From NCBI GenBank assembly GCA_964565865.1, contig CAZMGM010000004.1:1050-65049 (forward strand): a stretch of 64,000 nucleotides of DNA. Reading direction: 5' to 3'. This DNA comes from an uncultured Acidobacteriota bacterium. GTDB lineage: Bacteria > Acidobacteriota > UBA6911 > RPQK01 > CBDAPI01. Both the position numbers and the translations under genes were made by a program. Under the pieces are notes generated by a model. It was given only the letters and a program-made list of their open reading frames with translations, did no database searches and was not told the origin of the DNA. Shown here piece by piece: positions 11,667 through 37,369 of this stretch; position 1 is the stretch's first letter, and each line of letters starts with the position of its first letter.

Positions 11667-11729
11667 TCTTTGCGCCCTCATAAGGGCTAACAGTACAATA
11701 ATCTGAGTCAGCCTAAAACCGAGGAATGT

Positions 11730-17106: not shown

Positions 17107-17137
17107 AATAGATGTCCTTCTAATCAGTAGAGGCTCT

Positions 17138-20870: not shown

Positions 20871-20905
20871 TGCGTTCTCCCTTCGAAAAAAGGGGATAGT
20901 TTATT

Positions 20906-22270: not shown

Positions 22271-22350
22271 CAAGATTCTGCTTAGAGTTGCCGGGCCCTT
22301 GTCCCGGTTGACCTCATCTCCCACCCGTCGGGAATAGGTGCCGGAGTAAA

Positions 22351-22542
22351 CTACCCCTTTTCATAGTACTCGTTTGGTAACTTGTGGCAGAGCAGACTGC
22401 CTCCTTTGCCAAGTAAGGCATCGATATCGTCATGCCAAAGTTCAATGGCCTCATAGCCAGCTTCTCCAGCCACCGCGATCTTCTCGAGAATGGGAGTGGT
22501 CTTGATGTTGCTGCCGTTCAGGCAGTCTTGAAAATCGGCCAC
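22351..22542 (-). pseudogene. 63-aa remnant of a xylose-isomerase-like TIM-barrel (sugar phosphate isomerase/epimerase) gene
   Basis: …ILEKIAVAGEAGYEAIELWHDDIDAL… matches only the N-terminal about 60 aa of roughly 270-aa AP-endonuclease-2/xylose-isomerase-like proteins; an in-frame stop follows and there is no room for the rest before the next gene. Confidence 0.35.
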
Positions 22543-22798
22543 GGGCGTGAATTCTGGTATCGAGATATCCTCAGGGAGTCCCCTTATAACACAGCTTGTC
22601 TTCAGCGTCTTTTTGCACAGTGCAGATTGATCTTCTCTGCCGCCCTTCCCGGGCTGGGGATTGCTTTGTCTGCCGTCCTCCGTGGGCTTGCGCCCACGGC
22701 CATTTTCTTGCGGCCGCTCCGCGGCCTCCGAGCCAGTCTCCGATTGGGGGCGGCAGAGAACCGGGGGTCCGAAAGGCCCCGCAACAGCCCACCCGGAG

Positions 22799-23398
22799 TC
22801 ACGACTTCCTGAGAACTAACAGATAGAAGTCCTTCTCATCCGTGAAGTGGACGACCTCGAGTGGGATTTCAAGGATAAGCTCACCCAGACGCTCCTGATC
22901 GGGAAGAAGATGCGGTGTGCGGCGGGAATCACCGCGATTTAGATCGGCCACAAAACGGGAACCCAGGGGATGGCTTATGCAGATTCGGCCGCCGCTGCGC
23001 TGCCTGTCTACAACTTTCTCAAGGGTGGCTCGCTGATCCCACACGTTGCCGAACATGGCGTTGAGGAACACGGCATCGAAACGGCCTAGGCTTTCCGGTA
23101 GATCGATGACGTCTCCAAGCCAGAAGATGACCCCGTCATGCTGTTTCCGTGCCATTGCCAGCATGGTTGCGCTCAGATCGCATCCTACAACCTCGTCGAT
23201 TCCGTACTCCCGAATCAATGGAATCAGGACACCCGTGCCCGTGCCCACGTCCAAAGCCCGCTCGCCCCTGGAAAGCGCGGCCCTAGCAACGATGCGTTTC
23301 AGGCGTTCTTCCACCTCGTCTGGAATGGGCATGCAGAAGTTGTCAAGCTCCTCAGCAAAGATTTTCTGCTGGTACTTATTATGAGCAACACGAGCCAC
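22799..23398 (-). CDS. class I SAM-dependent methyltransferase (Methyltransf_11/25-like)
   Basis: Motif I LDVGTGTGVL, then DVIDLPESLGRFDAVFLNAMFGNV. Confidence 0.8.
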   Translation of the reverse strand: MARVAHNKYQQKIFAEELDNFCMPIPDEVEERLKRIVARAALSRGERALDVGTGTGVLIPLIREYGIDEVVGCDLSATMLAMARKQHDGVIFWLGDVIDLPESLGRFDAVFLNAMFGNVWDQRATLEKVVDRQRSGGRICISHPLGSRFVADLNRGDSRRTPHLLPDQERLGELILEIPLEVVHFTDEKDFYLLVLRKS

Positions 23399-23800
23399 AG
23401 AATTACCTGGAGTGCGGCACTCAGAGTGCCGCCTTAACGGGCGGAAGTCAACCTGTTGGCACTTGGAGGTGCGAATCTCCCAGGAGCGGGATTGTTCTCG
23501 AAAACCTTAACACGGTGTCGACAGGAAATAGCCGTGGTCGTAACCCCAAGGGAAACGGCTCTTGCATCTGACCAGCAGGGGCGAAGGGGCGACAGAGTTC
23601 GACAATTGAAGGTCAAGGACCCTGCTGGGCGGAACGATTCCATGGGGGGCCCATCAAAGCCCGCTGCGGAAGCAGCTGGAAGGGATCCTGGTGAGGTTGG
23701 CTCAGAATCCTACCCCCCGGGTTTTAGACGGGGGCTCTGACTCACCCGCCAGAACAGCGATCTTCCCCCCAACAAGAGGGGACAGAGCAAGGCCGGCACC

Positions 23801-24562
23801 CTATTGGTCGATGACAGATACCGGGGTTTTTTCCTCGATTCCCAGCAGCTCCTTGGCCTTCTCTACACAGGCTACGGCATCGCGGCCGTAACCGTCGGCC
23901 TTCATCTCTTTGGCCATCTCAACGGACAGGGCCGCACCGCCGGCCATCAGCTTGATCCGATCTCGCAGGCCGGCCTCTTTAAAGGCCTTGTGGTTTCGGC
24001 CAATGTTCTCCATGGTCGTTGTCAGCAGAGCTGACATGCCCACTATGTCGGCATCGTGCTCCCTCACGGCCTCGATGAACTCCTCGGCTTTAGTGTCTAC
24101 GCCCAAATCGTGAACCTCGAATCCGGCTCCCCGTAGCATCATTGTGCACAGGTTCTTTCCGATGTCGTGCAGATCCCCTTTTACCGTGCCCATGATCACT
24201 CTCCCGAGGGGCTCGATTTCGGAGGCGGAAAGAATGGGTTCCAGGTGGGTCATCCCGGCCTTCATGGCACGGGCCGCAACCAGTACCTCCGGGACAAAAA
24301 TGACATTGTCCCGAAATTTGACGCCTACGACCGACATACCTCCAATGAGCCCGTCGTCCAAAATTGTCTCAGCGTTCATACCGCTGTCCAGGGCCTCTCT
24401 GGTCAACCGGTCAACCTCATGTTGATCTCCGACAATCACCCCGTAGGCCATGTCTTGCAGGATGCCCCTCGCGTTTTCCAGTACCCCGCGAATACGCAGG
24501 TTTTCCTCGGGTTTCGTCACCCATTCAAGCTCTTTGTTCAGCCCTTCGTTCACTATTGCCAT
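23801..24562 (-). CDS. corrinoid (cobalamin)-binding protein of a methyltransferase system (B12-binding_2 + B12-binding domains), copy 1
   Basis: DxHxxG motif GDLHDIGKNL, GMSALLTTTM, helical cap domain; paralogous to 28870-29667. Confidence 0.85.
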   Translation of the reverse strand: MAIVNEGLNKELEWVTKPEENLRIRGVLENARGILQDMAYGVIVGDQHEVDRLTREALDSGMNAETILDDGLIGGMSVVGVKFRDNVIFVPEVLVAARAMKAGMTHLEPILSASEIEPLGRVIMGTVKGDLHDIGKNLCTMMLRGAGFEVHDLGVDTKAEEFIEAVREHDADIVGMSALLTTTMENIGRNHKAFKEAGLRDRIKLMAGGAALSVEMAKEMKADGYGRDAVACVEKAKELLGIEEKTPVSVIDQ

Positions 24563-24661
24563 CTGTGCCTTATTGCTTACTTCAATGAATCGAGGTCGTT
24601 AGTGTTCAACAATGGTGATGGGGGAGACTAGTCAATGTTGAGAGCGTAAAATCTACAGTTC

Positions 24662-25792
24662 TTACTGGAGAGAAATCGGGTATTTCCCATACCGAAAAGT
24701 AGCTTCTAGCATCGCCGCATAGTTGTCAATGGGGACATACTCCGGAACCGAATTACCGGAGGAGACACAATACCCACCACCCGGCCCCAGATCACGAATC
24801 CTGGTCCGAACCTCGTCCTCGACCTCCCCGGGGGTCCCTTTGGTCAAGGTGTACTGCAGATCGATGTTGCCTAAAAGGGCGATCCGATCTCCGTACTTGG
24901 CTTTTATCTCGTTAATATCGTGGGCCTGCTTTTCAACTGGATGCCAACCGTTGATCCCCATGTCAATCAGGTCCTCGATGACCATCGAGATATCCCCGTC
25001 GGTGTGATAGATAAAGGGCTTGTCCGCTGCCTTGGCCATCTCACACATAGTACGGTAGCAGGGAAACGCATACTTCCGGTAGTGATCTGGATGAACGAGC
25101 GGACCACCCTTCCCTGACAGATCGTCGGCATGAAAGCTCATACCCACGGCGGGGTGGTCCATGGCCACCTGCATCGCCCGTTGCTGTAGGGGCACGATTT
25201 TGTCATACATCATTTCGATGAATTCGGGGTCGTCGATGTAGGCCAGCATGAACGTCTCCATGCCCAGCATGAACCAGACGCCGGTAAAAATCTTGCCGAT
25301 GACAACGGCGATCTTCATGTCGTCCGGGAGTAGCGCCCCAACCTCGTCCAGGACGGAAAAGTCCAGGTCGTCAGGATTGGGCCAGGGATAAGCGTCGAAC
25401 TCTTCTCTGGTGCTGATGATTCCCTTGTGCATTTCCGCCCAGTGGCGTTCTGTGTAGGCTTCGAGAGTGGCCTTGCTCATGGCCTGTGTGGTAATCGCCA
25501 GGCCGGTTACCTTGTCGAGTTCGCTCGGGGTGTCGTCGACTGTGTGGTAGTTCAGTACGGACAGAGATACGGGATAGGCGTCGTATCCGGCCGTCCTATA
25601 AAACTGGATTTCATCTTCGTGCCCTTTGAGAGGGCGGCCCATGAACTGCTGCTTGATTTCCGGTTCTATGCCCATCTCAAAAATGGGCACATAATCCGGC
25701 TCCTGGTGAGAGATCGTCGCCTTGACCCTCTCAAAGTCCGTTTTCCGATCACCCTTGGCAGCTATGGCTCGTTCTACGGACTCCGGAATCAT
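24662..25792 (-). CDS. URO-D-family methyltransferase (MtaA/CmuA/MtvB-like) without the His/Cys zinc motif
   Basis: Uroporphyrinogen-decarboxylase-like fold (…PDYVPIFEMGIEPE… C-terminal …LGPGGGYCVSSGNSVPEYVPIDNYAAMLEA); the position of the MtaA zinc ligands reads YHTDGD, with no Cys. Confidence 0.75.
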   Translation of the reverse strand: MIPESVERAIAAKGDRKTDFERVKATISHQEPDYVPIFEMGIEPEIKQQFMGRPLKGHEDEIQFYRTAGYDAYPVSLSVLNYHTVDDTPSELDKVTGLAITTQAMSKATLEAYTERHWAEMHKGIISTREEFDAYPWPNPDDLDFSVLDEVGALLPDDMKIAVVIGKIFTGVWFMLGMETFMLAYIDDPEFIEMMYDKIVPLQQRAMQVAMDHPAVGMSFHADDLSGKGGPLVHPDHYRKYAFPCYRTMCEMAKAADKPFIYHTDGDISMVIEDLIDMGINGWHPVEKQAHDINEIKAKYGDRIALLGNIDLQYTLTKGTPGEVEDEVRTRIRDLGPGGGYCVSSGNSVPEYVPIDNYAAMLEATFRYGKYPISLQ

Positions 25793-26025
25793 AATCTACC
25801 TCCTATTCCGGAGATTAGCGTGGCTGTGTTACCGAGTCAAGCTCGTCTCTCTCAACCTCCCTCTCTGGCGGCGCTGCGGACTCTGCTCAAAACCCACGGT
25901 AGCATCAGTTCCCCTCTGGCAAAAGCTCGAATTCCGGCAAACAGTTCTGGTCCAAACAAGTCCAAGCAGCGGCAGAGAAGCAATCCGACGCGCTTTCGTT
26001 TATCATAGCCCCTCGTGACTCGAAT

Positions 26026-26793
26026 TTGGAGAAGGAGACTATGAGAGAAAACCGGGCAAAACGAAAACTAAATGACGGCGAGGTGGTGACAATTCTGCAG
26101 GGTGATGGCACCGCCGATATGATCGATTTCGTGGGGCAGCTGGGCGTGGATGGAGTCTGGCTGGAGGGTGAGCATGGTGCTCTCAGCTGGGAACAAATCG
26201 GTAACCGCTCGCGCGCCTGTGACCTGTGGGGGATGACCTCCGTTACCCGCGTGAACAAGAACGATGAAGGGCTGATCATGCGCACCCTGGACCGGGGCAG
26301 CATGGGCGTGGTAGTTCCTCACGTAAACAGTCGAATAGCCGCCCGGCAGGTGGTGCAGGCCGCCAAGTATGCTCCCGTCGGGTTACGGGGAATGTTCGGG
26401 GGACGTCAGTCCTACGGTGTTGAGAACTACTTTCGGCAGGCCAACGACCAGACTCTGGTGGTGGTGCTGATCGAGGAGCTGGAAGCGGTTCAGAACCTGG
26501 CAGAGATCCTGACCGTCGAGCATATCGATGTCTTTTTAGTGGCACCTTCAGATCTGGCCCAAACTATGGGGCATATCGGAAACCATCAGCACCCCGAAGT
26601 TCAGGCAACGGTCGATAGTGCTCTGGCTCAGATTGTCGCTGCGGGGAAAAATGCCGGGACACTAGTTTCTGACGAGACAGTAGAACGATATGTCGCTGCT
26701 GGAGTGAGCTTCCTCCTCACGCCCTGGAACCTGTGGGTGGCAAAAGGTGCACGGGCATTTCTCGAAAAGGTCCGATCAGCCGCTGCTTCGTAA
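26026..26793 (+). CDS. HpcH/HpaI-family class II aldolase (second copy), embedded divergently in the methyltransferase cluster
   Basis: GGAGAAGGAG RBS; …VDGVWLEGEHGALSWE…DRGSMGVVVPHVNS…GLRGMFG… family motifs. Confidence 0.8.
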   Translation: MEKETMRENRAKRKLNDGEVVTILQGDGTADMIDFVGQLGVDGVWLEGEHGALSWEQIGNRSRACDLWGMTSVTRVNKNDEGLIMRTLDRGSMGVVVPHVNSRIAARQVVQAAKYAPVGLRGMFGGRQSYGVENYFRQANDQTLVVVLIEELEAVQNLAEILTVEHIDVFLVAPSDLAQTMGHIGNHQHPEVQATVDSALAQIVAAGKNAGTLVSDETVERYVAAGVSFLLTPWNLWVAKGARAFLEKVRSAAAS

Positions 26794-26867
26794 GCGCTCG
26801 CCTGATCAAAAAAGATTGGAAGACGGCCTGGGGCCAGGAGGAGTTGCCGGGGGCCGACTTTACGGGC

Positions 26868-28493
26868 TCATTGGATTTGGGACTTGGTGCTGGGCTGGAA
26901 CATGCACCCCTCCACGAAAATATCAAAGAAATCCTCCGTGGTCTCCAGTTCGATGTGTTCGATCTCTTTCGCCGTCTTTTCTACCCACTGACGCAGGTCC
27001 TTCGACAGCAGCATGAGCGTGGCCCCCTGCAGAGCAGCATTGCCGACCTTCACTATTTTCTCCTGGGAAACATCAGGGATAAAGCCGATTCTGCGGGCAC
27101 TCTTCACGTCGATGTAATTGGCGAATCCCCCGGCCAGATAGACTTTGCTAATTTCTTCCACGGCCACGCCGAAGCGGCGGCGCACGATGTGCTGCCCACA
27201 GAAGTTAGCTGCCTTGGCCTGGGCCAGAGCGCTGATGTCGGCCCTTGAAAGGGACATCCCCTGGCCCGGAACAAATTCAAAGGCCTGACGATTGTCCGTA
27301 AAGACGCCCAACTTAGTCATGGAGCCGGTGCGCCGCAGCTCCGCCAGCAGATCGATCAGACCAGAGCCGCAGATTCCCAGAGGAGGGGCGTCCCCGATGG
27401 TGCGCCATTTCACATTGCCGTCCTCGAGCTTGACTGACTCAACTGCCCCTTCATAGCCGGGCATGCCATAGGTGATTTCCCCGCCCTCGAAAGCCGGGCC
27501 CGCTGGACAGGAGGCTGCCATCATGCGGTTTCGGTTGCCCACCACGATCTCCGTGTTGGTTCCCACATCGATGAGCATGACCTCGTCGTTTTCCCGGTCC
27601 ATGCCAATCGCCAAAAGGTCCGCCGCCAAGTCGGCCCCCACGTGAGAAGCGATCAAAGGCCCGCCGTAGATGTTGCCCTTGGGAAAAATTCTGAGGCCCA
27701 AATCACGGGCCTGCACATTGAGGGCAGTCGTGTCCCTTTTTCCGTCAAGCATTTCGTGTTCGGTGACCGACTTATAGGGCTTCTCGCCGATGGACTGGAC
27801 ATCGAAGCCAAACAGGATATCCCGCATTGTGGAGTTGCCTACCACGACCATCTCGTAAATCTGCCTCCTGGGGATTCCCGTTCGCTGACACATCTCCCGA
27901 ATCTCAAAGTTCAACCCGGACAGGATCGCCTGCTGTAGTTCACCGTGGAACTGGGTTCCGTCATAGGAGATGCGGTTCATGATGTCGCTTCCACCGAAGC
28001 GCTGAGGGTTTTCAAAAGAATTTGTGTGTAGCACGTCACCATTCTTCAAGTCGACCACATTAAAGACGACCGTGGTGGTTCCCAGGTCAACCGCTAGCCC
28101 TAAAAGGTTGCCCCGATATCGATCGATTCGAGTCTCCCGATCGTAGACATCGCCGTTGCTTCGTCTTATGAGAGGGTCGACTCTTACCTGGCGATGAATC
28201 GAGTCACTGAGGATCTTGGGTTCCCTTCGCAGCAGGGAGAATTCGACGTCGGCGTCGGGATTCTTCACCCGAGCCTGACAGGCAAGCCGGTAGTTCCCAC
28301 GCAGGAAGCTCTCTGCGTGGGTGGGTTCGCAAAGGGCTTCCATTCCCTGCCCGATCTGGACCACGCATTCATGACACTCACCACTGCGTCCACAGGAGGT
28401 AGGCACTCGAACCTCCAGCTCGTCGGCGTAATCAAAAATGGTTCGATTGACGACCAGCTTCAGCTCCTGGTCATCGTGTCGGATTCGAGACAT
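26868..28493 (-). CDS. RACo-type reductive activator of corrinoid proteins (N-terminal plant-type 2Fe-2S ferredoxin + ASKHA ATPase domain)
   Basis: CGRSGECHECVV…LACQARV (Cx5Cx2C…C), linker, then GLAVDLGTTTVV (ASKHA phosphate-1) and a DUF4445-like remainder. Confidence 0.8.
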   Translation of the reverse strand: MSRIRHDDQELKLVVNRTIFDYADELEVRVPTSCGRSGECHECVVQIGQGMEALCEPTHAESFLRGNYRLACQARVKNPDADVEFSLLRREPKILSDSIHRQVRVDPLIRRSNGDVYDRETRIDRYRGNLLGLAVDLGTTTVVFNVVDLKNGDVLHTNSFENPQRFGGSDIMNRISYDGTQFHGELQQAILSGLNFEIREMCQRTGIPRRQIYEMVVVGNSTMRDILFGFDVQSIGEKPYKSVTEHEMLDGKRDTTALNVQARDLGLRIFPKGNIYGGPLIASHVGADLAADLLAIGMDRENDEVMLIDVGTNTEIVVGNRNRMMAASCPAGPAFEGGEITYGMPGYEGAVESVKLEDGNVKWRTIGDAPPLGICGSGLIDLLAELRRTGSMTKLGVFTDNRQAFEFVPGQGMSLSRADISALAQAKAANFCGQHIVRRRFGVAVEEISKVYLAGGFANYIDVKSARRIGFIPDVSQEKIVKVGNAALQGATLMLLSKDLRQWVEKTAKEIEHIELETTEDFFDIFVEGCMFQPSTKSQIQ

Positions 28494-28544
28494 GGCTCCG
28501 TAGCTCCCTTAAACAAACGTCCGCTTATTTATAAAAGAGAGTAC

Positions 28545-28796
28545 TTACTCTACTTCCCAGGCACTCCGGTAGTCTAACTTGTCGCTGCCGGTGCAGATGG
28601 CCAACTGGTCGCGGCCGTCCTCGTAGCGCTGGTAGCGGCAGCCAAAGCGGGCGGTGCAGCGGTCATCCTTGTTCTTGTAGGGACAGCGCCACTGTGAAAC
28701 TTCGTTGGCGGTTTGGCCGATGTCCTGGTAGATCTCCCACAAGCGGTCGAGACTTCTCTGCAACTTTGCTTTGTCAGTTTGCGCATTGGAAGACAT
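28545..28796 (-). CDS. small hypothetical protein, 83 aa, four Cys (possible metal-binding)
   Basis: ORF in the same orientation between the corrinoid-2 and RACo genes; …WRCPYKNKDDRCTARFGCRYQRYEDGRDQLAIC…; no known family recognised. Confidence 0.45.
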   Translation of the reverse strand: MSSNAQTDKAKLQRSLDRLWEIYQDIGQTANEVSQWRCPYKNKDDRCTARFGCRYQRYEDGRDQLAICTGSDKLDYRSAWEVE

Positions 28797-28869
28797 CGGA
28801 CGACTCCCGTCTTTCGGGTATTCAGTGTGCCGGTAACAGCACTAGTATTCTACCAGCCGTGGTCCGAAG

Positions 28870-29667
28870 TTATTCCTCAACCGAGGAGCCGGCCGTTGCT
28901 TCTTGTGGAGGGGCAACAGGCGAGGACGCAGATTTGTCCTGGATACCTAACAGCTGTTTGGTCTTTTCCACGCAGGCAATCGCATCCTTGCCGTAGCCGT
29001 CCGCTCCCATATCGTCCGCGAATTCCTGGGTGACAGGGGCTCCTCCGACCATGGTCTTGACCCTGCTCTGGAGCCCCGCTTCTTCAAAAGCCTGGATGGT
29101 CTTCCCCATGTTGGGCATGGTAGTGGTCAGCAAGGCCGACATTCCCACCACCTGTGCACCGTGCTCCATGACCGCGTCGATGAACTCGTCGGGCTTCGTA
29201 TCCACTCCCAGATCCTCAACCGTGAAGCCGGACCCACGCAGCATCATGATGCACAGGTTCTTGCCAATATCGTGAAGGTCGCCCTTGACTGTCCCCATGA
29301 TTACAGTACCCAACGGAGGGAGGTCAGAGGCCGAGAGAATAGGCTCCAGGTGGGCCATGCCAGCCTTCATAGCTCGAGCTGAGATCAGAACCTCGGGAAC
29401 AAAAATGATGTTGTCTCGAAACTTGACACCGACCAGAGCCATCCCCGCAATGAGCCCGTCATCCAGCACAGTACTTGCCTCAAAACCCTCGTCTAGGGCC
29501 TGTTTGCTCAACCGGTCCACATCGTGCTGATTGCCTACGATGAGGGCGTAGCTGATGTCCTGCATTAGTGGATCTGCCCCTTCGAAAGTCGTACTGATCC
29601 GTTGCAACTCGTTGGGCCGGGTCACATGAACCAGCTCCTTAATGAGACCCTCATTTACGATCGGCAT
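28870..29667 (-). CDS. corrinoid (cobalamin)-binding protein of a methyltransferase system, copy 2
   Basis: AAGGAG 6 nt upstream of ATG 29667 (MPIVNEGL…); GDLHDIGKNL DxHxxG; about 70-75% identical to copy 1 with a Pro/Ser-rich C-terminal tail. Confidence 0.85.
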   Translation of the reverse strand: MPIVNEGLIKELVHVTRPNELQRISTTFEGADPLMQDISYALIVGNQHDVDRLSKQALDEGFEASTVLDDGLIAGMALVGVKFRDNIIFVPEVLISARAMKAGMAHLEPILSASDLPPLGTVIMGTVKGDLHDIGKNLCIMMLRGSGFTVEDLGVDTKPDEFIDAVMEHGAQVVGMSALLTTTMPNMGKTIQAFEEAGLQSRVKTMVGGAPVTQEFADDMGADGYGKDAIACVEKTKQLLGIQDKSASSPVAPPQEATAGSSVEE

Positions 29668-29717
29668 TCTCTTCTCCTTCACAGCCGGCCGTTAGCCTCG
29701 GCCGCTTTCCCAGCCTC

Positions 29718-30761
29718 TCACGATTCCAGGCGCCCGTCCCTCCAGGCCTGTATGTAGTTGACGCAGAATTCGTCTTGGCCCAGTAAAACCTCGCGGGCCA
29801 AACGGATCCCCTTCGACTCGATGTCCAGATCCAGGATCGCTTCGATGTCGCACTGAACCGGATCGATGATGCCACTGTCAATTCCTGCTTCCAGACTCAG
29901 GTGAATGAACGCTAGATTGATCAGCTTTCTCTGGGGCAGTCCAAAGGAAACATTGCTTAGCCCACCCGTTATATGAACTTCGGGCCCGTAAAGCTCCCGC
30001 ATCTCGGTCACGGCATCCAGGTAATGCTGGCCGTAATCGGCAGCCACCGAGATCGGAAATACCAGGCCGTCGATGTACACGTCGTCCAGCTGAATCCCTC
30101 TGGCTTCTACCATATCCATCAGCTGCTTCACGTTGGCTACCCTTTCAGCCGCGTCGGAAGGCATGCCCTCAGCTCCCGCCGCAGTCACGATGATCCTGGC
30201 GTTGTATTGTTCTACCAGATCCAGGGTCTGTGGTCGCTCCAAGGCCAGAGAGTTCAGCATGGGCCGACCGGCCCGGCCGTCGTATTGAGCCAGACCTGCT
30301 TCAATGATCTCGGCATTGGAAGAGTCCACGCTGAGCGGAATCGGAGACACCTCCTGAACGGTCCTGACCAGCCACTCCATGGCCCGTTTCTGGACATCTA
30401 CCCGATAGGACACTTCGTCTACGTTCAAATCCAGAAAGTGGGCTCCCGCATCAACCTGTCGTCTGACGCCGTAGTGTACGTAGTCCTTCGCCTGCGCCTG
30501 ATCGTCGGGGTCGTCACTGAGCCCCTTGTTCACCGCAATCATGTAGTGCTTGACATGACCTTGCTGATAGGGCTGAGTCTCTTTGTAGCTCTCGGGAATG
30601 GGCATGAGGCGCCTCTCCCCCGACTCCCCGCGAAACAGAACGGCTTCCGTCCCATCTTCGAGGGTGGTCACACGGATCCCCTTCACCAAGACGACCCGAG
30701 TGGCGTGGATGTTTTCTCCAATAATGACAAAATCCCGGGCCGATTCAACGATTCTTGGCAT
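29718..30761 (-). CDS. pterin-binding methyltransferase (methyl-tetrahydrofolate:corrinoid methyltransferase, AcsE/MtrH/MtvA-like)
   Basis: IIGENIH N-terminal pterin-binding signature and TIM-barrel DHPS-like remainder (…DGLVFPISVAADYG…GGLSNVSFG…). Confidence 0.75.
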   Translation of the reverse strand: MPRIVESARDFVIIGENIHATRVVLVKGIRVTTLEDGTEAVLFRGESGERRLMPIPESYKETQPYQQGHVKHYMIAVNKGLSDDPDDQAQAKDYVHYGVRRQVDAGAHFLDLNVDEVSYRVDVQKRAMEWLVRTVQEVSPIPLSVDSSNAEIIEAGLAQYDGRAGRPMLNSLALERPQTLDLVEQYNARIIVTAAGAEGMPSDAAERVANVKQLMDMVEARGIQLDDVYIDGLVFPISVAADYGQHYLDAVTEMRELYGPEVHITGGLSNVSFGLPQRKLINLAFIHLSLEAGIDSGIIDPVQCDIEAILDLDIESKGIRLAREVLLGQDEFCVNYIQAWRDGRLES

Positions 30762-30798
30762 GACGAAGACGATCTAAGTGATTACTTTACTTAGGAAA

Positions 30799-31836
30799 TC
30801 AGTTGGAGTGTTTTTTGCACCATTCTTTGACAGACTTGGGTATCTCGAGCAGATTTTCGAGTCTGGTTGCCAGGGGAATGGCACATTCGGGAGCGATCAA
30901 ATTTACCCCGGCATCCATGCATGCATTGACCGCCTCACGCACTTCTTCGGGTCCGCGAGCATAGAGCAGCTCGGGATTATTGAGGTTCCCCACCAGCTGG
31001 ATCCGTCCGTCCGCAATCTCCATGGCCTTCTTCGGATCGTTTTTGGAGTCGAAATGGAAACAGGCCATCCCTGTCTGGGCGATGAAATCCAATCGGTCAA
31101 GAGTAGCCCCGCAAATGTGCAGGATGAGCGGGCATGGGATCCGCTCCACTATTTCCTTATGGAGTTCCAGCAGAAACTTCCGGTAATACTCTCCACTCAC
31201 GAGATCTCCGGTTGCGTGATCCGGAAAAGTAAGAGCATCGGCTCCGGCTTCGATTTGTGCATTGGAGAACAGAACCGAGATTTCCGTGAGGCGCTCCAGG
31301 CACTGCATGGTCCTACCCGGATCATCAATGCTCATGAGCAGAAACTGCTCGACTCCGAAGACGTGGTAGGCAAGTGTCCAGGGCCCCATCGCTTTCCCGA
31401 TAATGGCAGCTTCGTCCCCGTACTCCTTCTTTAAAATAGACAGACAGTCAAGCACGCAGCGATTGTCCGGGTGGGTCAGAAAATCCTTGGGGATGTGAAC
31501 GTCTTCCGGTCCTTCCCAGATGGGCTTGTACATGCGTACGGTGGGCCAGTTGTCTTTTACTTCCCATTGCATTTCACAACCCAGGGCCGAGGATTCTTGA
31601 ATGATGGTGAAGACCGGCATAATGCTGTCGAAACCTAGCTCGGTGTACCCCGTTGCGGCCAGTCGGGCATTCAATTCGGGATCTCGGCAGGCGTCCGGAA
31701 ACGGAGCGCCCACCAAGTCCATCAACTCGACGGTAGCCACATTCGTAGGATTGGATATGGGCGGCCTGTCAACTGGTTTGCCAGCCAGAGCATTGAGAAC
31801 CCGGTCTCGAGGTTTCATTGTTTCAAGAAAAGCCAT
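30799..31836 (-). CDS. MtaA/MtbA/MtsA-like URO-D-family methyltransferase with zinc-binding motif
   Basis: MtaA-like N-terminus …RVLNALAGKPVDRPP…; ILHICG (His-x-Cys) and a downstream APECAIP Cys as in methylcobamide:thiol methyltransferases. Confidence 0.8.
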   Translation of the reverse strand: MAFLETMKPRDRVLNALAGKPVDRPPISNPTNVATVELMDLVGAPFPDACRDPELNARLAATGYTELGFDSIMPVFTIIQESSALGCEMQWEVKDNWPTVRMYKPIWEGPEDVHIPKDFLTHPDNRCVLDCLSILKKEYGDEAAIIGKAMGPWTLAYHVFGVEQFLLMSIDDPGRTMQCLERLTEISVLFSNAQIEAGADALTFPDHATGDLVSGEYYRKFLLELHKEIVERIPCPLILHICGATLDRLDFIAQTGMACFHFDSKNDPKKAMEIADGRIQLVGNLNNPELLYARGPEEVREAVNACMDAGVNLIAPECAIPLATRLENLLEIPKSVKEWCKKHSN

Positions 31837-31888
31837 TAGGAGTTACTCCTCAACAATTGGCATCGTGGCGAACCAGTGGAGCCAATGA

Positions 31889-32581
31889 TCACATGGGGCT
31901 GAATCCAGCGGTTCCGGTTGTCAGCTGTCCCCGCATGGCTGACTCCTCCAGCATTGTTTCCACCGCGCTGATGTTGCGCGAGTAGGGGAGCAGAAGCCTG
32001 AGTAATTCATCGTGGCGTTGTCCGCACTCAAACGCAACCAGATTCTCTCCTGCTTTCTCCATTTCGCCGTAACGGATGAAGCCTGCCTGCAGGGCCGGAA
32101 GTCGCCAGGGAATTTTTTCCGGATCGCCGGCGGCAGAAATCCGATAAACCCAGCGGTCACCCTGGCCACTGCCCTCAACGTTGATCGTCAGGTCAGTTTT
32201 GGTGTCAGGTATCGACAGCGGCCCTTCAGGATGCCTGTAGTCGGGCGATTTCTCGACTGCCTGGGCCAGCAGGAACTTGAGGGGTCTGGCATGCTGGGAG
32301 CCACACCAGAATCTCGCCTGGTCGTTGGTATCCTCGACCACCTCCAGGCCACCCAGCTTGATCAGCTGATCACGAATGTTTCGAATCCGCTTTGTCGCAC
32401 CGTCCTTCTGGCTATAGGTCCAGACCGTTAGAATGTTGCCTTTCCGGTAAAGTCCCACCGTAATGTCTTCGAAGTGCGGGTCCATCGAAATCAACTCTAG
32501 GCACTTTCCGTACCGCTCGACAACATCAATCACCCGAAGGCTGTGCTCCTCTCCTGTTTCTACCATAAGGCTCTCCTCCAT
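31889..32581 (-). CDS. hypothetical protein (230 aa)
   Basis: ORF in the same orientation immediately upstream of the mtaA-like gene; no recognisable domain. Confidence 0.5.
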   Translation of the reverse strand: MEESLMVETGEEHSLRVIDVVERYGKCLELISMDPHFEDITVGLYRKGNILTVWTYSQKDGATKRIRNIRDQLIKLGGLEVVEDTNDQARFWCGSQHARPLKFLLAQAVEKSPDYRHPEGPLSIPDTKTDLTINVEGSGQGDRWVYRISAAGDPEKIPWRLPALQAGFIRYGEMEKAGENLVAFECGQRHDELLRLLLPYSRNISAVETMLEESAMRGQLTTGTAGFSPM

Positions 32582-32608
32582 TTGGATCTGCCTCTACGAG
32601 AATCTCTG

Positions 32609-32959
32609 CTATTCAGAAATCCATCCGTCCGCAGCACCCGGGTAGGGGTTGCGCTCTCCCGATTTCTGTAGACTCCGAACCCGGCTCACGAAGTCTTCTG
32701 GGAAACCTTGATTGTAACGATCCGCCAGCTTCACAGCCGCCTCGGCTGCAGTAGCTTCCACTGCAAAGTACTCTCCCCAGGCCCATCCATTCAGATAACT
32801 CTCCGAGTCGAGGCTTCCATCCAGCATGGCTAGCCGGTCGATCCCTTCCTGGAAACGGCCGGCAAGTGGCTGTGACACCTGCCCGTGCTCGTCCTCAGTT
32901 TGGACCTGGACAGGAATCTCCTTCCAGTAAAGAACCCGCGCCTTCGTACTCCTTTTCAC
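32609..32959 (-). CDS. hypothetical protein (116 aa)
   Basis: ORF in the same orientation with a 27-nt gap to the next gene; …VLYWKEIPVQVQTEDEHG…; no confident family. Confidence 0.5.
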   Translation of the reverse strand: MKRSTKARVLYWKEIPVQVQTEDEHGQVSQPLAGRFQEGIDRLAMLDGSLDSESYLNGWAWGEYFAVEATAAEAAVKLADRYNQGFPEDFVSRVRSLQKSGERNPYPGAADGWISE

Positions 32960-33250
32960 GAACAGAGGCCCATGTCTATAGTAACTCTCCTTCTTGTTTC
33001 CCCACCCCCAGCAAATGACTTTCTATTAATGGAAAGAAAGGCTGAGTGGTGCCCATTCTGTCAGGCTCCGGCGCAAAAGTACGGGGGACATACTACATGA
33101 ATTTCGGTCTGGTTTCCAAGCAGCCTGTGGGACTCTCACCACGGGCTGCAAAGGCAGCCGAGTTCCTGACGCCACTTTAAAAAAAGGGGGCGGGACTTCA
33201 CATTTCCTTACCAACTAACGGATAATTGCATCTTCTGGCGGAGGTGAGAA

Positions 33251-34003
33251 ATGAGTTTTCGACTGGATGGGCGTGTTGCCCTGGTAACCGGAGCAGCCAC
33301 GGGCATTGGCGAAGCCACAGCCCGGAGACTAGCAGATTACGGGGCCAGGGTTTGTATCGTGGACATCGATCCCGAGGCTGCCTCAGAGGCCGCCGCTCGA
33401 CTTTCCTCGGCGGGGCACAAATCCCAGATCATTACTGCGGATGTCTCTGTCCCGGAGGATGCCGAGAGAATGGTTCTGGAAGCGCTGGAACAACTCGGTC
33501 AGATCGACATCCTCGTGAACAACGCGGGAATTGCCGGGAAAAGTGCCCCGTTATGGGAACAGACCGATGAGGACTGGGGGCGGATCGTGGGCATCAATCT
33601 GCACGGAGTGTTTTATTGTTGCCGTGCCGTGGTCCCTCATATGCGGGAGCGAAACCAAGGACGAATCATCAATGTTGCCTCGATTGCCGGCAAGGAAGGG
33701 AACCCCCTGGCTACCCCCTATTCGACTACCAAAGCCGCTGTCATCGGGCTCACAAAGGCGCTGGCCAAGGAAGTTGTCGCTGAAAGCATCAGGGTTAACT
33801 GTGTTGCGCCGGCGGTGATCCAAACCCGGATCCTGGATCAAATGAGTCAGCAGCACATTGACTACATGGTGAGTAAGATCCCCCTCGGGCGGGTGGGAAC
33901 CCCCGAAGAGGTAGCTGCTGTGATCCATTTTCTGGCCTCAGACGACTCCAGTTTTGTGACCGGCCAGTGTTACGACGTCAGCGGTGGCAGAGCCACCTAT
34001 TGA
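33251..34003 (+). CDS. SDR-family oxidoreductase (FabG-like)
   Basis: GGAGG RBS; TGAATGIG Rossmann motif, NNAG, catalytic S…YxxxK. Confidence 0.85.
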   Translation: MSFRLDGRVALVTGAATGIGEATARRLADYGARVCIVDIDPEAASEAAARLSSAGHKSQIITADVSVPEDAERMVLEALEQLGQIDILVNNAGIAGKSAPLWEQTDEDWGRIVGINLHGVFYCCRAVVPHMRERNQGRIINVASIAGKEGNPLATPYSTTKAAVIGLTKALAKEVVAESIRVNCVAPAVIQTRILDQMSQQHIDYMVSKIPLGRVGTPEEVAAVIHFLASDDSSFVTGQCYDVSGGRATY

Positions 34004-34018
34004 AGGGGGAGTGGTGAT

Positions 34019-34987
34019 TTACCCCTGATCGTCAGTGGAGGCCCCAAAACGGCGTGACAGCAACCCGGCTTCTTCAATGATTTCCGCCACCAGTTCCTCC
34101 TGGCGATAGGCCATGACATGAACACCCGAGACTCCAGGGATCTCGCTCACCTGCTGAATGATCTCAACACAAATGTTTCGGCCTTCCTCACGCTGATTCC
34201 CGGTCGGAACCGATTTCAAACGCTGGATGATCGGGTCTGGAATCACGACACCGGGAATATTCGTTCTGATCCACTCGGCGGCCCCGGCAGACCGCAAGGG
34301 ACCCACCCCAACCAGTATGAAGACCTGTTCATGGATTCCCAGGTCACGGACCGCCGTCATGAAAGTCTCCAGGCGGGGAACATCGAAACAGTACTGGGTC
34401 TGGATAAAATCGGCACCTGCCTCGACTTTCTTCTTTAGCCTCAGGGGGCGGAAGTCGAAGGGCGGAACGAAGGGATTGGCAGCAGCTCCCAGAAACAAAG
34501 GTGGTGGTGTTTCCAGCTTCCGGCCACTCAAGAAGCGGGATTCGTCGCGCAGGATCCGGGCGGTTCTGAGCAGAGTCATCGAGTCGAGGTCGAAAACCGG
34601 TCGGGCGTCGGGCTGGTCGCCCACCTGCACGCCGTCGCCGGTCAAGCACAGGACGTTCCGTACGCCCAGTGCGGCGGCACCCAGCAGATCTCCCTGAATG
34701 GAGATTCGATTGCGATCCCGGCAGGAAACCTGCAAAACGGGCTCATATCCCGCCTGGGTGAGAAGGGAACAGACTCCCACGCTGGACATGTGTACATGTG
34801 CTCCCGAGGCGTCGGTGGCGTTGATGGCATCACAGACGGAAGCCAGCACCAGGGCCCGATCATAAACCTCATTTGGATCCGCCGTGTCGGGAGGATTCAG
34901 CTCGGCAGTCACGGCAAAGCGACCCGACCGCAATACGTGCTCAAGGCGCGAACCGGCTCGCATTCTGGTTTTCTCCATCATTCCCAC
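34019..34987 (-). CDS. metF: 5,10-methylenetetrahydrofolate reductase, acetogen-type large subunit
   Basis: MTHFR TIM-barrel sequence (…FAVTAELNPP…LCLTGDG…FIQTQYCFD…); the start could be ATG 34978/34981 (TGATG coupling with metV) or GTG 34987. Confidence 0.8.
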   Translation of the reverse strand: MGMMEKTRMRAGSRLEHVLRSGRFAVTAELNPPDTADPNEVYDRALVLASVCDAINATDASGAHVHMSSVGVCSLLTQAGYEPVLQVSCRDRNRISIQGDLLGAAALGVRNVLCLTGDGVQVGDQPDARPVFDLDSMTLLRTARILRDESRFLSGRKLETPPPLFLGAAANPFVPPFDFRPLRLKKKVEAGADFIQTQYCFDVPRLETFMTAVRDLGIHEQVFILVGVGPLRSAGAAEWIRTNIPGVVIPDPIIQRLKSVPTGNQREEGRNICVEIIQQVSEIPGVSGVHVMAYRQEELVAEIIEEAGLLSRRFGASTDDQG

Positions 34988-35427
34988 CCAGGTGGCGGGT
35001 TGCCCTTACCGGCGAAATCGTTCACCCAGGCGGAAGTCCCTTCGAGTTGACGATTGAGCGGGGGTAGAACCTTGAGTATTTCCGAACCGTTGGAGGGCAT
35101 TCTCTGGGATCGCTCCCAGGCCTCGACCCAGACGCAAGGCATGTCGGGAACGATCTCGCAGTGCCCATTGGTCCGTACTCCTCCACAGGGACCGTTCCGC
35201 AGGTTCTTGGGACAGGTCATGGGGCAGGTCATTCCCGTCACGTGCAATACGCACTGGCCGCACATACGGCAATCAAACACGATTCCCTTGCCGACTCGTT
35301 CGGCGTAAATCAGGAAAGATTCCACCCAGCCCCCCGGCTTCAACCAGGGGCGAAAAGGACGCAGCAGTTGACGGGTGGCAGAATACGCCAACTCAAGAAG
35401 ATGAGGATACTCCTGTAGGATTCTCAC
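34978..35427 (-). CDS. metV: MetV-like small subunit (MTHFR_C Cys-rich domain)
   Basis: Cys-rich CRMCGQCVLHVTGMTCPMTCPKNLRNGPCGG typical of the MTHFR C-terminal/MetV domain; overlaps the metF start. Confidence 0.7.
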   Translation of the reverse strand: MRILQEYPHLLELAYSATRQLLRPFRPWLKPGGWVESFLIYAERVGKGIVFDCRMCGQCVLHVTGMTCPMTCPKNLRNGPCGGVRTNGHCEIVPDMPCVWVEAWERSQRMPSNGSEILKVLPPLNRQLEGTSAWVNDFAGKGNPPPGWE

Positions 35428-35519
35428 CGTTTTTTCTCCACTGTCCAGAGTCGCGTTTTCGACGGGCTCACCGCCGGCAGTCTAACAGCCCGTGGTTAGA
35501 GTCGTGCTTCAGCGCACTT

Positions 35520-36470
35520 CTAACCGACTATGTTGCGGGGCGTCCCGGCGAAAAAAGCTCGAATATTTTCTCCGGTTTCATCCACTAACTTCTGTCGCGC
35601 CTGGCGGGCTGACCAGGCGCAGTGAGGCGTAATGATCATGTTTTTTGCGTCTAGAAGGACATTACCGTCAACTGGAGGTTCGATAGTAAGAACGTCGAAT
35701 CCTGCCCCGGCAATTCGACCGCTGTTCAGGGCGGCAGCCAGGGCCTGCTCGTCCACGATCCCGCCCCGTGCCGTATTGATAATCATGGCCGTTGGCTTCA
35801 TCCTGCTCAAGGCATCCGCATCGATCAAGTTGCGAGTATGATCGGTCAGGGGGCTGTGCACGGTCACAAAGTCGGACTCCCGAAAAATGGTTCTAAGATC
35901 GGTGTTGGTGTAGTCGGACCCTCGAATCTCAATGATGTCGTAGGCCAGTACCCTCATACCGAAGCCCTCAGCAATCCGCGCCACTCCCCGCCCAATGGTC
36001 CCAAAGCCAATGATTCCAATGGTCAGGCCCGAGAGCTCGAATGCCGGGTACTTCAACAGGTTGAACGAGGCGGCTCTGGCCCACTCCCCCGCCATGACAT
36101 CGGCATGATAGAGATGAGCTTTGGTGGCCAGGTTGAGAATCAGAGCAAAGGTGTGCTGGGGGACCGTGTTGGAGGCATATCCGGCTACATTGCAGACCGC
36201 AACTCCCTTTTCCCTGGCAGCTTCCAAATCGACGTTGTCGTATCCCGTTGCGATTTCAGCGATTAGCCGGAGTGAATCCAAGGACTCGATCACCTTTGAG
36301 GTGATCAGAACCTTGTTGGGAATCACCACCTCGGCACCGGAGGCTCTTTCGACGACCTCGTCCTCGGACGAGTGGGCGTAACCAACATAGTCTCCCAGTC
36401 CTTCAAAGACGGAGAAGTCAATGTCGTTTTTGAGACTGATAGTCGATTCGTCCGGAAAAACGATCTTCAT
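35520..36470 (-). CDS. D-isomer-specific 2-hydroxyacid dehydrogenase (glycerate/phosphoglycerate-DH-like)
   Basis: MKIVFPD… start at ATG 36470 with an AGGGAA RBS; GIIGFGTIGRGVARIAEGFGMRV NAD motif; catalytic R/E/H. Confidence 0.8.
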   Translation of the reverse strand: MKIVFPDESTISLKNDIDFSVFEGLGDYVGYAHSSEDEVVERASGAEVVIPNKVLITSKVIESLDSLRLIAEIATGYDNVDLEAAREKGVAVCNVAGYASNTVPQHTFALILNLATKAHLYHADVMAGEWARAASFNLLKYPAFELSGLTIGIIGFGTIGRGVARIAEGFGMRVLAYDIIEIRGSDYTNTDLRTIFRESDFVTVHSPLTDHTRNLIDADALSRMKPTAMIINTARGGIVDEQALAAALNSGRIAGAGFDVLTIEPPVDGNVLLDAKNMIITPHCAWSARQARQKLVDETGENIRAFFAGTPRNIVG

Positions 36471-36699
36471 TTCCCTGAGCCCCTTTATATACTCTCTTAT
36501 CCTCGCAGATACGGAAAAGCTTACAGCATTTGAATCATTCCACAAGGGCAGGGCCCCAGAATTTGATCACCACAGCCACAGAAATACGGTGATTTGCCGG
36601 TTCTGGCAGCCCATCGACTGCGGGCTCCTCAGGAATCCGACCAGATCTCTGTCTCAAAGGACAGGGGTTCTGCCTTATTGAATCGCCAGGCCTCCTCTT

Positions 36700-37110
36700 A
36701 CAGGTCAGCCTTCAGACAAAGGTTGCCAAGAAACCCCTCAACGTCCGCACCCGTACAGTACGACCACCTGGGGTAGCAGAAGTCCTTTCCTTTTCTTTCT
36801 GTATGATCATAAGGTCATGCTTCCCGATGCGGATCTGCTGGGTCAAAGATATGTGAGGGCGTTGATCTCGATACGGAGATCCGGAAGTTCTGCGATGGTC
36901 ACCGCCGGAAAACGTGGATCGCGAGTGGCCGCGGAGATTGCCATGCCAGTCACCGATTTGATGAAAGGCTGACGAAAGCTCCTTGCTGCTTCAAGTAGAG
37001 ACTGCGACTTGGTATCCCAAGCCGGGAGCTCGCCGATGGTCAGGTACGCCGTAATCAATGTTCGGGCCAGGCAAAGCAGCTCGTCACTCTGACATTCTCG
37101 TTCTCAAGCT
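36700..37110 (-). pseudogene. AMMECR1-domain gene remnant (frameshifted and truncated)
   Basis: The 36843-37058 frame reads …MAISAATRDPRFPAVTIAELPDLRIEINALTYL* (AMMECR1 DPRFPP…IEISVLT block) with the RGCIG motif degenerate; the homologous continuation (…RIGKHDLMII…) lies in another frame. Confidence 0.35.
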
Positions 37111-37369
37111 ATTCGACTATTCAAGTCTGATAGGGAGCGGTAATCAACCTGGCCTTCACCGTCCAGGCAAAATACGCGTCGAAGTTGGGGCGGACTGACA
37201 CCCGCTCCTTCCCGGCTGGCGCCACAGCAGACTCTGATCCTCTCGACAACTGCGTCCGGAAGAGGGGTTGCCGGTTAACAGTTGTTGGTGGAAGATCGCA
37301 CGTTTGTGGAACCTGAAATAGGGGAGGCATGGCCTTGGGTGACAGTTCTTCCCTGTAAACTAAATTACC

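Follow-up and report, generated by a model that had tools for sequence, protein, structure and literature searches.

Corrinoid methyltransferase systems set which methylated compounds microbes can use, from osmolytes and methyl-sulfur gases to methyl halides and methoxy-aromatics. The subject of this study is a corrinoid methyl-transfer region (positions 22351–37110) in a 64-kb stretch of DNA, hereafter the window, from an uncultured Acidobacteriota bacterium (contig CAZMGM010000004.1). At its core is a cassette of seven minus-strand genes with intergenic gaps of 27–73 nt, which encode, in this order, a PF13769 protein, a conserved protein of about 225 residues, an MtaA-like methyltransferase, a pterin methyltransferase, a corrinoid protein, a small protein with four invariant cysteines (Cys4) and a RACo-type reductive activator. 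A MetV–MetF methylene-tetrahydrofolate (THF) reductase lies on one side of the cassette, and a second pair, consisting of a divergent URO-D-superfamily methyltransferase (URO-D2) and another corrinoid protein, on the other. The first-pass annotation of this DNA had taken the whole 15 kb for a single island. It is composite: the seven-gene cassette and MetVF are conserved across two phyla, and the rest are add-ons.

Among the closest described systems is MtgBCDE of the aerobic marine bacteria Ruegeria pomeroyi and Phaeobacter inhibens, a split methionine synthase that doubles as a glycine-betaine demethylase (PMC12478193, PMC5764234). In Ruegeria, glycine-betaine demethylation and methionine synthesis draw on one and the same corrinoid protein and on a pterin enzyme that works in both directions (PMC12478193). 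Like MtgBCDE, the window has a stand-alone corrinoid protein, a stand-alone pterin methyltransferase, a RamA/RACo activator and a nearby metF paralogue, and in SAR202 relatives of the window the corrinoid hub would likewise be shared by a demethylation route and a PF02574 homocysteine methyltransferase. Unlike MtgBCDE, whose genes are dispersed and whose donor-side enzyme is the MttB-family MtgB, the window carries its components in one operon with a URO-D/MtaA-family enzyme as the putative donor-side component, and there is no Pfam-detectable DUF1638, in place of which stand the PF13769 protein, the 225-residue protein and the Cys4 protein. The island genes and the 10 larger neighbours scanned include neither a member of the MttB family (PF06253: MttB, MtbB, MtmB and MtgB) nor MtaB, which agrees with the first-pass view that the component set does not match the methanol, methylamine or glycine-betaine systems.

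The O-demethylase and Cdm systems (OdmABCD, VdmB, MtvABC, MtoABCD and CdmBCA) resemble the window in that they combine a UroD-type methyltransferase I (MT-I), a corrinoid protein, a pterin methyltransferase II (MT-II) and an ATP-dependent activator; in addition, the divergent URO-D family of the second pair weakly matches CdmB. Unlike in these systems, the main MT-I here comes from the zinc-dependent MtaA/CmuA branch and is accompanied by extra conserved accessory genes, and the hosts are uncultured Acidobacteriota and SAR202-type metagenome-assembled genomes (MAGs) rather than acetogens, organohalide respirers or methanogens. Of the methanogen enzymes MtaA, MtbA, MtsA and MtpA, MtaA is the closest solved structure and has an identical H-x-C...(D/E)...C zinc site, but the coenzyme M metabolism in which MtaA and MtbA act is not expected in the hosts of the cassette. 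Type 1 mlp clusters, which are found in obligate anaerobes, encode Mlp2 together with Mlp3, a corrinoid protein and Ram/RACE, and no THF methyltransferase (PMC10418091), whereas the cassette comes with a THF methyltransferase and MetVF and mostly has a single MtaA-like gene.

Systems for halomethanes share further parts with the window. The cmu system (CmuA/CmuB/MetF2) also brings together an MtaA/CmuA-family methyltransferase, a corrinoid component, a pterin methyltransferase and a linked metF. However, CmuA fuses the methyltransferase and corrinoid domains, which are encoded by separate genes here, and the island is without cmuC, folD and purU and has RACo and three extra accessory proteins. 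The mec cassette contains counterparts of five components, namely MecE (MtaA/CmuA), MecC (UroD), MecB (corrinoid), MecF (THF-side) and MecH (RACo), and its MecG and MecH reportedly have the same domain make-up as the B12-reactivation pair described by Price et al., a RamA-like and a DUF1638 protein (bioRxiv 10.1101/2021.08.30.458270; PMC5764234). Compared by its published description, mec differs in gene order and in having an MtrH-type MecF in place of a PF00809 enzyme, and the island has no Pfam-detectable DUF1638, PocR histidine kinase, MecA/D regulators or MecJ antiporter.

The cassette works like the three- or four-component corrinoid methyltransferase systems, yet fails defining features of mec, cmu, Cdm/O-demethylase, type 1 MGC, MtgBCDE, MtaABC and MttB-type systems. 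Its overall logic is already known; what is new is a clade of putative donor-side enzymes with an obligatory partner, and two conserved accessory proteins. In the literature searched, there is no description of the cassette and no biochemically characterised syntenic cluster. The comparison of gene neighbourhoods called for in the first-pass annotation has thus left the cassette without a characterised counterpart, but also far from unique to the window, with 47 loci and more than 4500 relatives of its MtaA-like protein.

Conservation of the cassette in two phyla

A scan for the MtaA-like protein with one genome per species identified 43 loci that carry it at 73–95% identity, all of them in MAGs of Acidobacteriota or Dehalococcoidia/Chloroflexota, the nearest match being an Acidobacteriota contig (95% identity). 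In the protein database, more than 4500 relatives are found; the best 120 of those listed show 73% identity or more, and SAR202 appears among the labels. Judged by its sequence, the host of the window is an uncultured Acidobacteriota bacterium and not a planctomycete. The context of a DUF1501/PSCyt pair had been taken to indicate a lineage foreign to demethylating acetogens. This view does not hold for a host in the Acidobacteriota, a phylum that includes the demethylating homoacetogen Holophaga foetida. Record names suggest that the habitat of the MAGs is marine and possibly sponge-associated.

The window proteins were compared by tblastn with 46 loci, giving 47 loci with the window itself (26 Acidobacteriota and 21 Dehalococcoidia); labels L001–L052 below refer to the related contigs compared with the window. 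The order of the cassette is conserved in the 47 loci. The 225-residue protein is encoded next to the MtaA-like enzyme in 47 of 47 loci, three of which have no corrinoid protein or RACo nearby. Since this adjacency holds in every locus, the 225-residue protein is suggested to be a subunit or chaperone of the MtaA-like enzyme. The Cys4 protein has orthologues in 25 of the 26 Acidobacteriota and 18 of the 21 Dehalococcoidia loci, the PF13769 protein in 19 and 13, respectively. The first-pass annotation had listed these three as a small Cys protein and two unknown open reading frames (ORFs); conservation in more than 40 loci of other genomes establishes them as real genes.

The methyltransferases that accompany the MtaA-like enzyme vary by phylum. 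The MeTr-like pterin enzyme is present in 26/26 Acidobacteriota and 11/21 Dehalococcoidia loci, its absence being counted within 10 kb of the locus. The PF02574 homocysteine S-methyltransferase, the module that marks a split methionine synthase, is found in none of the 26 Acidobacteriota loci, nor does it have a homologue anywhere in the 64-kb window; each of the 21 Dehalococcoidia loci carries it. Ten of the latter carry PF02574 without the pterin enzyme, and seven of these ten also have the corrinoid protein and RACo. MetVF adjoins the cassette in 24 of the 26 Acidobacteriota loci and can be on either side of it.

In seven SAR202-type loci (L002 and L041–L046), a tandem MtaA-like paralogue, 66–69% identical to the window protein, is located about 1.1 kb upstream. 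The L002 cassette also contains a fusion gene for homocysteine methyltransferase and methylene-THF reductase (homocysteine-MT/MTHFR). In trees of the MtaA-like and corrinoid proteins, built by neighbour-joining only, a Dehalococcoidia subclade (L018, L024–L027) joins Acidobacteriota L028 and L029. The tree topology makes a past cross-phylum transfer of the whole cassette likely. The nearest non-cassette homologues of the MtaA-like protein, found in Latescibacterota and Armatimonadota (L050–L052), are 44–47% identical, and the cassette clade is set off from them by a long branch. They have unrelated neighbours and no corrinoid protein nearby, and their context gives no functional clue.

Components of the cassette and MetVF

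Gene calls are based on the ORF listing and on Pfam and NCBIfam profile searches with curated cut-offs. These searches bear out the families named in the first-pass annotation: two corrinoid proteins, two URO-D methyltransferases, a pterin enzyme, RACo, MetV–MetF, a short-chain dehydrogenase/reductase (SDR) and an HpcH aldolase. Neither URO-D protein is HemE, as the hemE model TIGR01464 gives 77.6 bits for the MtaA-like protein (cut-off 302.95) and no match for the URO-D2 protein, and both corrinoid proteins belong to the B12-binding family. Table 1 gives the features of the region.

Table 1. Features of the region in window coordinates, with the cassette and MetVF listed first
Feature	Position	Strand	Support or remark
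PF13769 ('Virulence_fact') protein, 116 aa	32609-32959	minus	PF13769 4e-11; first gene of the cassette
Unknown conserved protein ('unk230'), 225-230 aa	31889-32581	minus	directly upstream of the MtaA-like gene
MtaA/CmuA-family zinc methyltransferase (MtaA-like), 345 aa	30799-31836	minus	PF01208 1e-68
MeTr-like methyl-THF:corrinoid-protein methyltransferase	29718-30761	minus	PF00809 84.7 bits (cut-off 25.5)
Corrinoid protein 1 (B12 cap + Rossmann, DxHxxG)	28870-29682	minus	PF02607+PF02310
Cys4 mini-protein, 83 aa	28545-28796	minus	four invariant Cys; between corrinoid protein and RACo
RACo-type ATP-dependent reductive activator	26868-28493	minus	PF00111+PF17651+PF14574, all above cut-offs
MetV, small Cys-rich subunit of MetVF-type methylene-THF reductase	34978-35427	minus	PF12225 6e-27
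MetF, methylene-THF reductase	34019-34987	minus	PF02219 1e-34
Divergent URO-D-superfamily methyltransferase (URO-D2), 376 aa	24662-25792	minus	PF01208 7e-21
Corrinoid protein 2, partner of URO-D2	23801-24562	minus	PF02607+PF02310, GDLHDIGKN
SDR oxidoreductase	33251-34003	plus	PF13561/PF00106; between metF and cassette
HpcH/HpaI class II aldolase	26026-26793	plus	PF03328 4e-27; convergent with RACo
D-2-hydroxyacid dehydrogenase	35520-36545	minus	PF02826+PF00389; no NCBIfam equivalog reached
Class I S-adenosylmethionine (SAM)-dependent methyltransferase	22799-23398	minus	Methyltransf_25/11; downstream of second pair
AMMECR1 pseudogene	~36630-37100	minus	PF01871 fragment; tblastn against intact L007:1144-1755
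63-aa ORF, earlier called 'TIM-barrel remnant'	22351-22542	minus	unsupported

The MtaA-like protein passes the TIGR01463 (249.8 bits, cut-off 235.4) and NF004889 (260.7 bits, cut-off 244) models and misses the equivalog cut-offs for MtaA (NF040654, 222 of 400 bits) and MtbA (NF041608, 200 of 600 bits). Its top match in the Protein Data Bank (PDB) is Methanosarcina MtaA (4AY7, 8.6e-50). The alignment to 4AY7, in which the zinc ligands are H240, C242, E263 and C319, includes the motifs LHICG, FDSK and PEC. Residues H240, C242, D263 and C318, which align with the MtaA ligands, do not vary among 55 MtaA-like orthologues.

The true start of the neighbouring 225-residue protein is likely at 32566, which gives the protein this length. 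Its invariant residues are C22, C88, H92, C181 and H185, to which a conserved C-terminal tail is added, and its paired C-G-x-x-H motifs suggest a metal site. The last ~15 residues (RGQ[LM]TTGT[AL]GF[ST]P) are nearly invariant, yet predicted to be disordered, with a predicted local distance difference test (pLDDT) score below 50. The tail may dock into a partner enzyme. Orthologues of the PF13769 protein have invariant W, E, P, Q, RF, YL, W-W and PG positions. The Cys4 protein belongs to no Pfam family; its orthologues share the invariant pattern RCPY...CTA.F.CR.Q...C.G.D.L.Y..AW, and it probably binds a metal.

The pterin enzyme matches MeTr/AcsE structures (2YCI, 4e-35; 2E7F) and the MT2 of a Desulfitobacterium O-demethylase (4O0Q, 7e-30), and it retains the GLSN motif, its GLSNVS aligning with 2YCI. 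With NF005719 it reaches 214 bits, under the cut-off of 259. By these profile scores it is best described as a divergent MeTr subfamily. Relative to MeTr structures, residues ~20–95 contain an insertion of ~55 residues after strand β1 (IIGENIH); the orthologues in the annotated loci L001 and L002 are of equal length (345–347 residues).

Corrinoid protein 1 is most similar to Moorella 1Y80 in the PDB (1e-62), and its GDLHDIGKN motif is invariant in 42 orthologues. For both corrinoid proteins, the best NCBIfam match is the MtgC_2 model, far under its cut-off (199 of 370 bits), and both are below the cut-offs of the TIGR02370 and MtgC models. RACo consists of an N-terminal 2Fe-2S ferredoxin domain, a middle domain and an ASKHA ATPase domain; it falls below the NCBIfam cut-off for AcsV (326 of 800 bits) and does not reach that of the RamA model. 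The metV and metF genes overlap by 10 nt, and both proteins are above Pfam cut-offs. The top NCBIfam match of MetF is the MTHFR half of the bifunctional Hcy-MT/MTHFR model, and MetF is 75–94% identical across related loci. An Rfam search of the window gave no match to a B12 riboswitch or to any other controlling RNA, and a scan for sigma-70 promoters and terminators performed no better on the real sequence than on shuffles.

Proposed route and substrate

With modest confidence, the core is read as a conserved operon for a methyl shuttle built on a RACo-activated corrinoid protein, with the MtaA-like enzyme on the donor side. With its 2Fe-2S cluster and with ATP, RACo would reduce the corrinoid protein's inactive Co(II) to Co(I), a step in which the Cys4 and/or PF13769 proteins may assist. 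The zinc enzyme of the MtaA/CmuA type and its 225-residue partner would then transfer the methyl group of a small methylated substrate to form CH3-Co(III), from which the MeTr-like enzyme would hand it to THF. MetVF would finally oxidise CH3-THF to CH2-THF for one-carbon oxidation or assimilation. The first-pass annotation had proposed a full route of corrinoid-based methyl transfer that leads to THF and MetVF and includes ATP-dependent reactivation, and all the predicted parts are encoded here. In the Dehalococcoidia/SAR202 version, the built-in homocysteine S-methyltransferase would turn methyl-corrinoid directly into methionine. The second URO-D/corrinoid pair, which has neither a THF methyltransferase nor an activator of its own, presumably supplies a second methyl donor to the same hub.

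The assignment of the MtaA-like enzyme to the donor side follows from the constancy of its pairing with the 225-residue protein (47/47), as the other methyltransferase varies by phylum. In the seven loci that have the corrinoid protein and RACo and are without the pterin enzyme, the homocysteine enzyme is the obvious acceptor, which leaves the MtaA-like enzyme as the donor side. A corrinoid/pterin core that is shared in this manner and works in both directions has a precedent in Ruegeria MtgBCDE (PMC12478193). The tandem MtaA-like paralogues and the extra URO-D/corrinoid module fit the diversification typical of substrate-specific MT-I enzymes. From the families, motifs, operon organisation and conservation observed in these loci, we infer the direction of flux, the roles of the three uncharacterised proteins and the substrate.

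Several points weigh against a donor-side role. The direction is read from gene co-occurrence, and MtaA itself methylates a thiol (coenzyme M), so that a role on the acceptor side is chemically equally possible. A search around the cassette for conserved transporters and product-processing genes found lineage-specific housekeeping neighbours only; no transporter or product-processing enzyme is consistently linked, and the flanks of the Acidobacteriota loci are housekeeping genes. Together with the high conservation, this neighbourhood is no less compatible with a biosynthetic function, for example in methionine synthesis, than with a catabolic one. The Dehalococcoidia loci without a nearby pterin enzyme may, moreover, encode it elsewhere.

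If the MtaA-like enzyme does act on the donor side, its family narrows the choice of substrates. In published accounts of the UroD superfamily, members of the MtaA/CmuA type, characterised or proposed, act on thiols, thioethers and halomethanes, and other clades include O-demethylases (PMC10418091; PMC13222342; bioRxiv 548461). Because the MtaA/CmuA branch (MtaA/MtbA/MtsA/MtpA, CmuA, MecE and the proposed Mlp roles) uses such chemistry, a methyl-sulfur compound or a methyl halide is favoured. By this analogy, the substrate class is most likely a methylated sulfur compound, such as dimethyl sulfide (DMS), methanethiol or methylmercaptopropionate (MMPA), or else a methyl halide. The existence of a cobalamin-dependent methyltransferase for DMS in aerobic bacteria has been assumed since 1993, and according to a 2019 study the enzyme had yet to be identified (PMC6548844); by its structure, the cassette is a suitable candidate. 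We tentatively propose, as a possibility that is more likely wrong than right in its full form, that the 225-residue/MtaA-like pair and the corrinoid protein constitute a marine cobalamin-dependent methyltransferase for DMS, methanethiol, MMPA or methyl halides, which passes the methyl group to THF in Acidobacteriota or to homocysteine in SAR202 and works with a new and obligatory metal-binding partner and two new accessory proteins.

Alternative functions

The cassette of Acidobacteriota could also run in the anabolic direction as a split methionine synthase, in which MetVF would make CH3-THF, the MeTr-like enzyme would methylate the corrinoid protein and the MtaA-like enzyme would methylate homocysteine. 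The URO-D-fold module would then substitute for the PF02574 domain of MetH and RACo for its reactivation domain. We consider this unlikely, although several observations favour it. The metF gene adjacent to nearly all Acidobacteriota cassettes (24/26) is a classic methionine-biosynthesis gene; MtaA methylates a thiol with the help of zinc, and the zinc site is preserved here; the flanking genes have housekeeping functions, and the sequences are very highly conserved. Split MetH proteins with a RamA-like activator are established in Phaeobacter and Ruegeria (PMC5764234, PMC12478193). PF02574, present in all Dehalococcoidia cassettes, is missing from those of Acidobacteriota, where the MtaA-like protein is the sole candidate for methylating a thiol, but these genomes may carry a PF02574 gene at another site, just as the split parts are scattered in Ruegeria. 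Against this reading, in 21/21 Dehalococcoidia loci the MtaA-like gene is accompanied by a genuine homocysteine methyltransferase and must do something else there. The tandem MtaA-like paralogues of the seven SAR202 loci and the obligatory 225-residue partner, which has no counterpart in any methionine synthase, point the same way.

The same intact MtaA-type zinc-thiolate site would also suit a thiol or sulfide acceptor, so that methyl groups from CH3-THF or from the second pair would be passed to sulfide, methanethiol or another thiol to give methanethiol, DMS or a methyl-thioether. The host phylum is that of the sulfide-methylating Holophaga foetida, which, according to Kreft and Schink, reportedly couples corrinoid/THF-dependent O-demethylation to sulfide methylation. 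A role in the metabolism of methyl-sulfur compounds or methyl-selenide has, in addition, been suggested for the Mlp proteins of type 1 MGC (PMC10418091). Such an output is nevertheless improbable: spending CH3-THF brings no obvious benefit in the many genomes that have the core cassette only, the homocysteine methyltransferase of SAR202 is left unexplained, and the flanks show no sulfide-metabolism genes. Equally little probability is given to a marine system akin to mec (dichloromethane) or to cmu/Cdm (chloromethane), in which the MtaA-like and divergent URO-D proteins would correspond to MecE and MecC. A corrinoid protein, an MtaA/CmuA enzyme, a second UroD enzyme, a THF-side methyltransferase and RACo are indeed shared, the metF linkage recalls the cmu pathway, and mec-like cassettes have been reported in metagenomes of marine oxygen-minimum zones (bioRxiv 10.1101/2021.08.30.458270). 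On the other hand, the order of marine mec genes is mecBCFGHE and differs from the order here; the reported MecF is of the MtrH family, whereas the THF enzyme here is PF00809/MeTr-like; DUF1638, the MecA/D regulator and the MecJ antiporter have no Pfam-detectable counterpart; most cassettes are missing the second URO-D gene; and the halomethane-specific CdmB is without zinc (PMC13222342). Identity with the mec cassette itself is rejected because of the gene order and the component families as given in the description of mec.

The second URO-D/corrinoid pair

The URO-D2 protein is 24% identical to the MtaA-like protein. In its family, an invariant H263-x-D265 and N347-S348 replace the HxC...C of MtaA, and there are no Cys zinc ligands. 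The family profile matches MtaA (5.6e-13) and the zinc-free chloromethane enzyme CdmB (3.8e-8) in the PDB. Because of its divergent identity, motifs and profile matches, the protein is placed in a separate clade of UroD-superfamily corrinoid methyltransferases, and it is proposed to be a second substrate-specific MT-I. Some distant relatives are fused to B12-binding domains (P0198, P0203). The genomic contexts of relatives with 38–41% identity yield no functional clue.

Corrinoid proteins 1 and 2 are 66.5% identical to each other. The URO-D2/corrinoid pair is found beside the cassette only in the closest relatives (L003, L004, L007 and L012) and occurs alone, away from a cassette, in another genome (L005/L006). 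The pair behaves as a portable two-gene module. In L005 and L006, class I SAM methyltransferases are encoded 2–5 kb downstream of the pair in unrelated contexts; they are not detectably orthologous to the SAM methyltransferase of the window. The latter, which scores 40.9 bits with the CpaM model NF043040 (cut-off 180), is specific to the window, and its membership in the system is doubtful.

Neighbouring genes and the edges of the region

Among the relatives, the SDR gene stands between metF and the cassette in the nearest ones alone (L003, L004, L007 and L012). The HpcH aldolase, which is under the cut-offs of the HpaI and GarL models, is present only in L004, L007, L009, L010 and L012 among the compared loci. 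Both are lineage-specific and not conserved members of the system, to which the first-pass annotation had assigned the aldolase. The D-2-hydroxyacid dehydrogenase recurs as a neighbour without being part of the core, a gene of this kind adjoining the cassette in 10/26 Acidobacteriota and 11/21 Dehalococcoidia loci.

Further left in the window, positions 10608–15007 contain an Ldh_2-family dehydrogenase (10608–12314), another HpcH/HpaI aldolase (12714–13511) and an Nramp-like transporter (13508–15007), which may form a small catabolic set for 2-oxoacids or hydroxyacids unrelated to the cassette. Directly left of the region (15652–19813) lie a DUF1501 gene, confirmed by Pfam, and a gene for a large protein that is 'PSCyt' by its first-pass label only. 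As the host is an Acidobacteriota MAG, the DUF1501/PSCyt pair is not specific to planctomycetes. The ORFs of a 2-hydroxyacid dehydrogenase (19867–20985) and a DRL/SAF-domain oxidoreductase (20906–22324) overlap by 80 nt, and the former probably starts downstream of its listed TTG.

Nucleotide synteny with the closest relative extends from 23790 to 38390 and ends exactly after the second corrinoid gene. Since synteny stops at 23790, the SAM methyltransferase, the 63-residue ORF and the oxidoreductases to its left belong to a window-specific context. The 63-residue ORF, which had been called a TIM-barrel remnant, has no Pfam match at E ≤ 10, no PDB match and no counterpart in related loci, and this label is dropped. 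A 69-residue ORF at 23434–23643 lacks conservation and is unlikely to be a gene.

The right flank, including the AMMECR1 locus and an amidase, is syntenic with that of relatives. The AMMECR1 gene was correctly called a pseudogene: compared with its intact L007 orthologue, it has a deletion of ~20 residues, in-frame stops and a frameshift. In L007, an ISAZ013-family DDE transposase gene (1778–2992, minus strand) lies between the intact AMMECR1 and the 2-hydroxyacid dehydrogenase genes, which points to past insertion sequence (IS) activity at this spot; no IS is present at the matching place of the window (36541–37100). The pseudogene is a gene that decayed in its syntenic position and not a scar of island insertion. 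A mobile or recently inserted island, which the degraded edges had been thought to indicate, is rejected: the GC content does not shift, no tRNA, flanking repeat or integrase/mobility gene is present, and the right flank is syntenic.

Biological significance

Both SAR202-type Dehalococcoidia and marine Acidobacteriota belong to the uncultured heterotrophs that are most abundant in the deep ocean and in sponges. Should the MtaA-like enzyme take methyl groups from DMS, methanethiol, MMPA or methyl halides, a gap among the known enzymes of marine sulfur or halocarbon cycling would be filled, and such compounds would gain a new route to methionine. If homocysteine is methylated instead, the cassette would represent a new architecture of methionine synthase. 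Either way, the 225-residue Cys/His protein, the Cys4 mini-protein and the PF13769 protein gain a context in which their functions can be tested.

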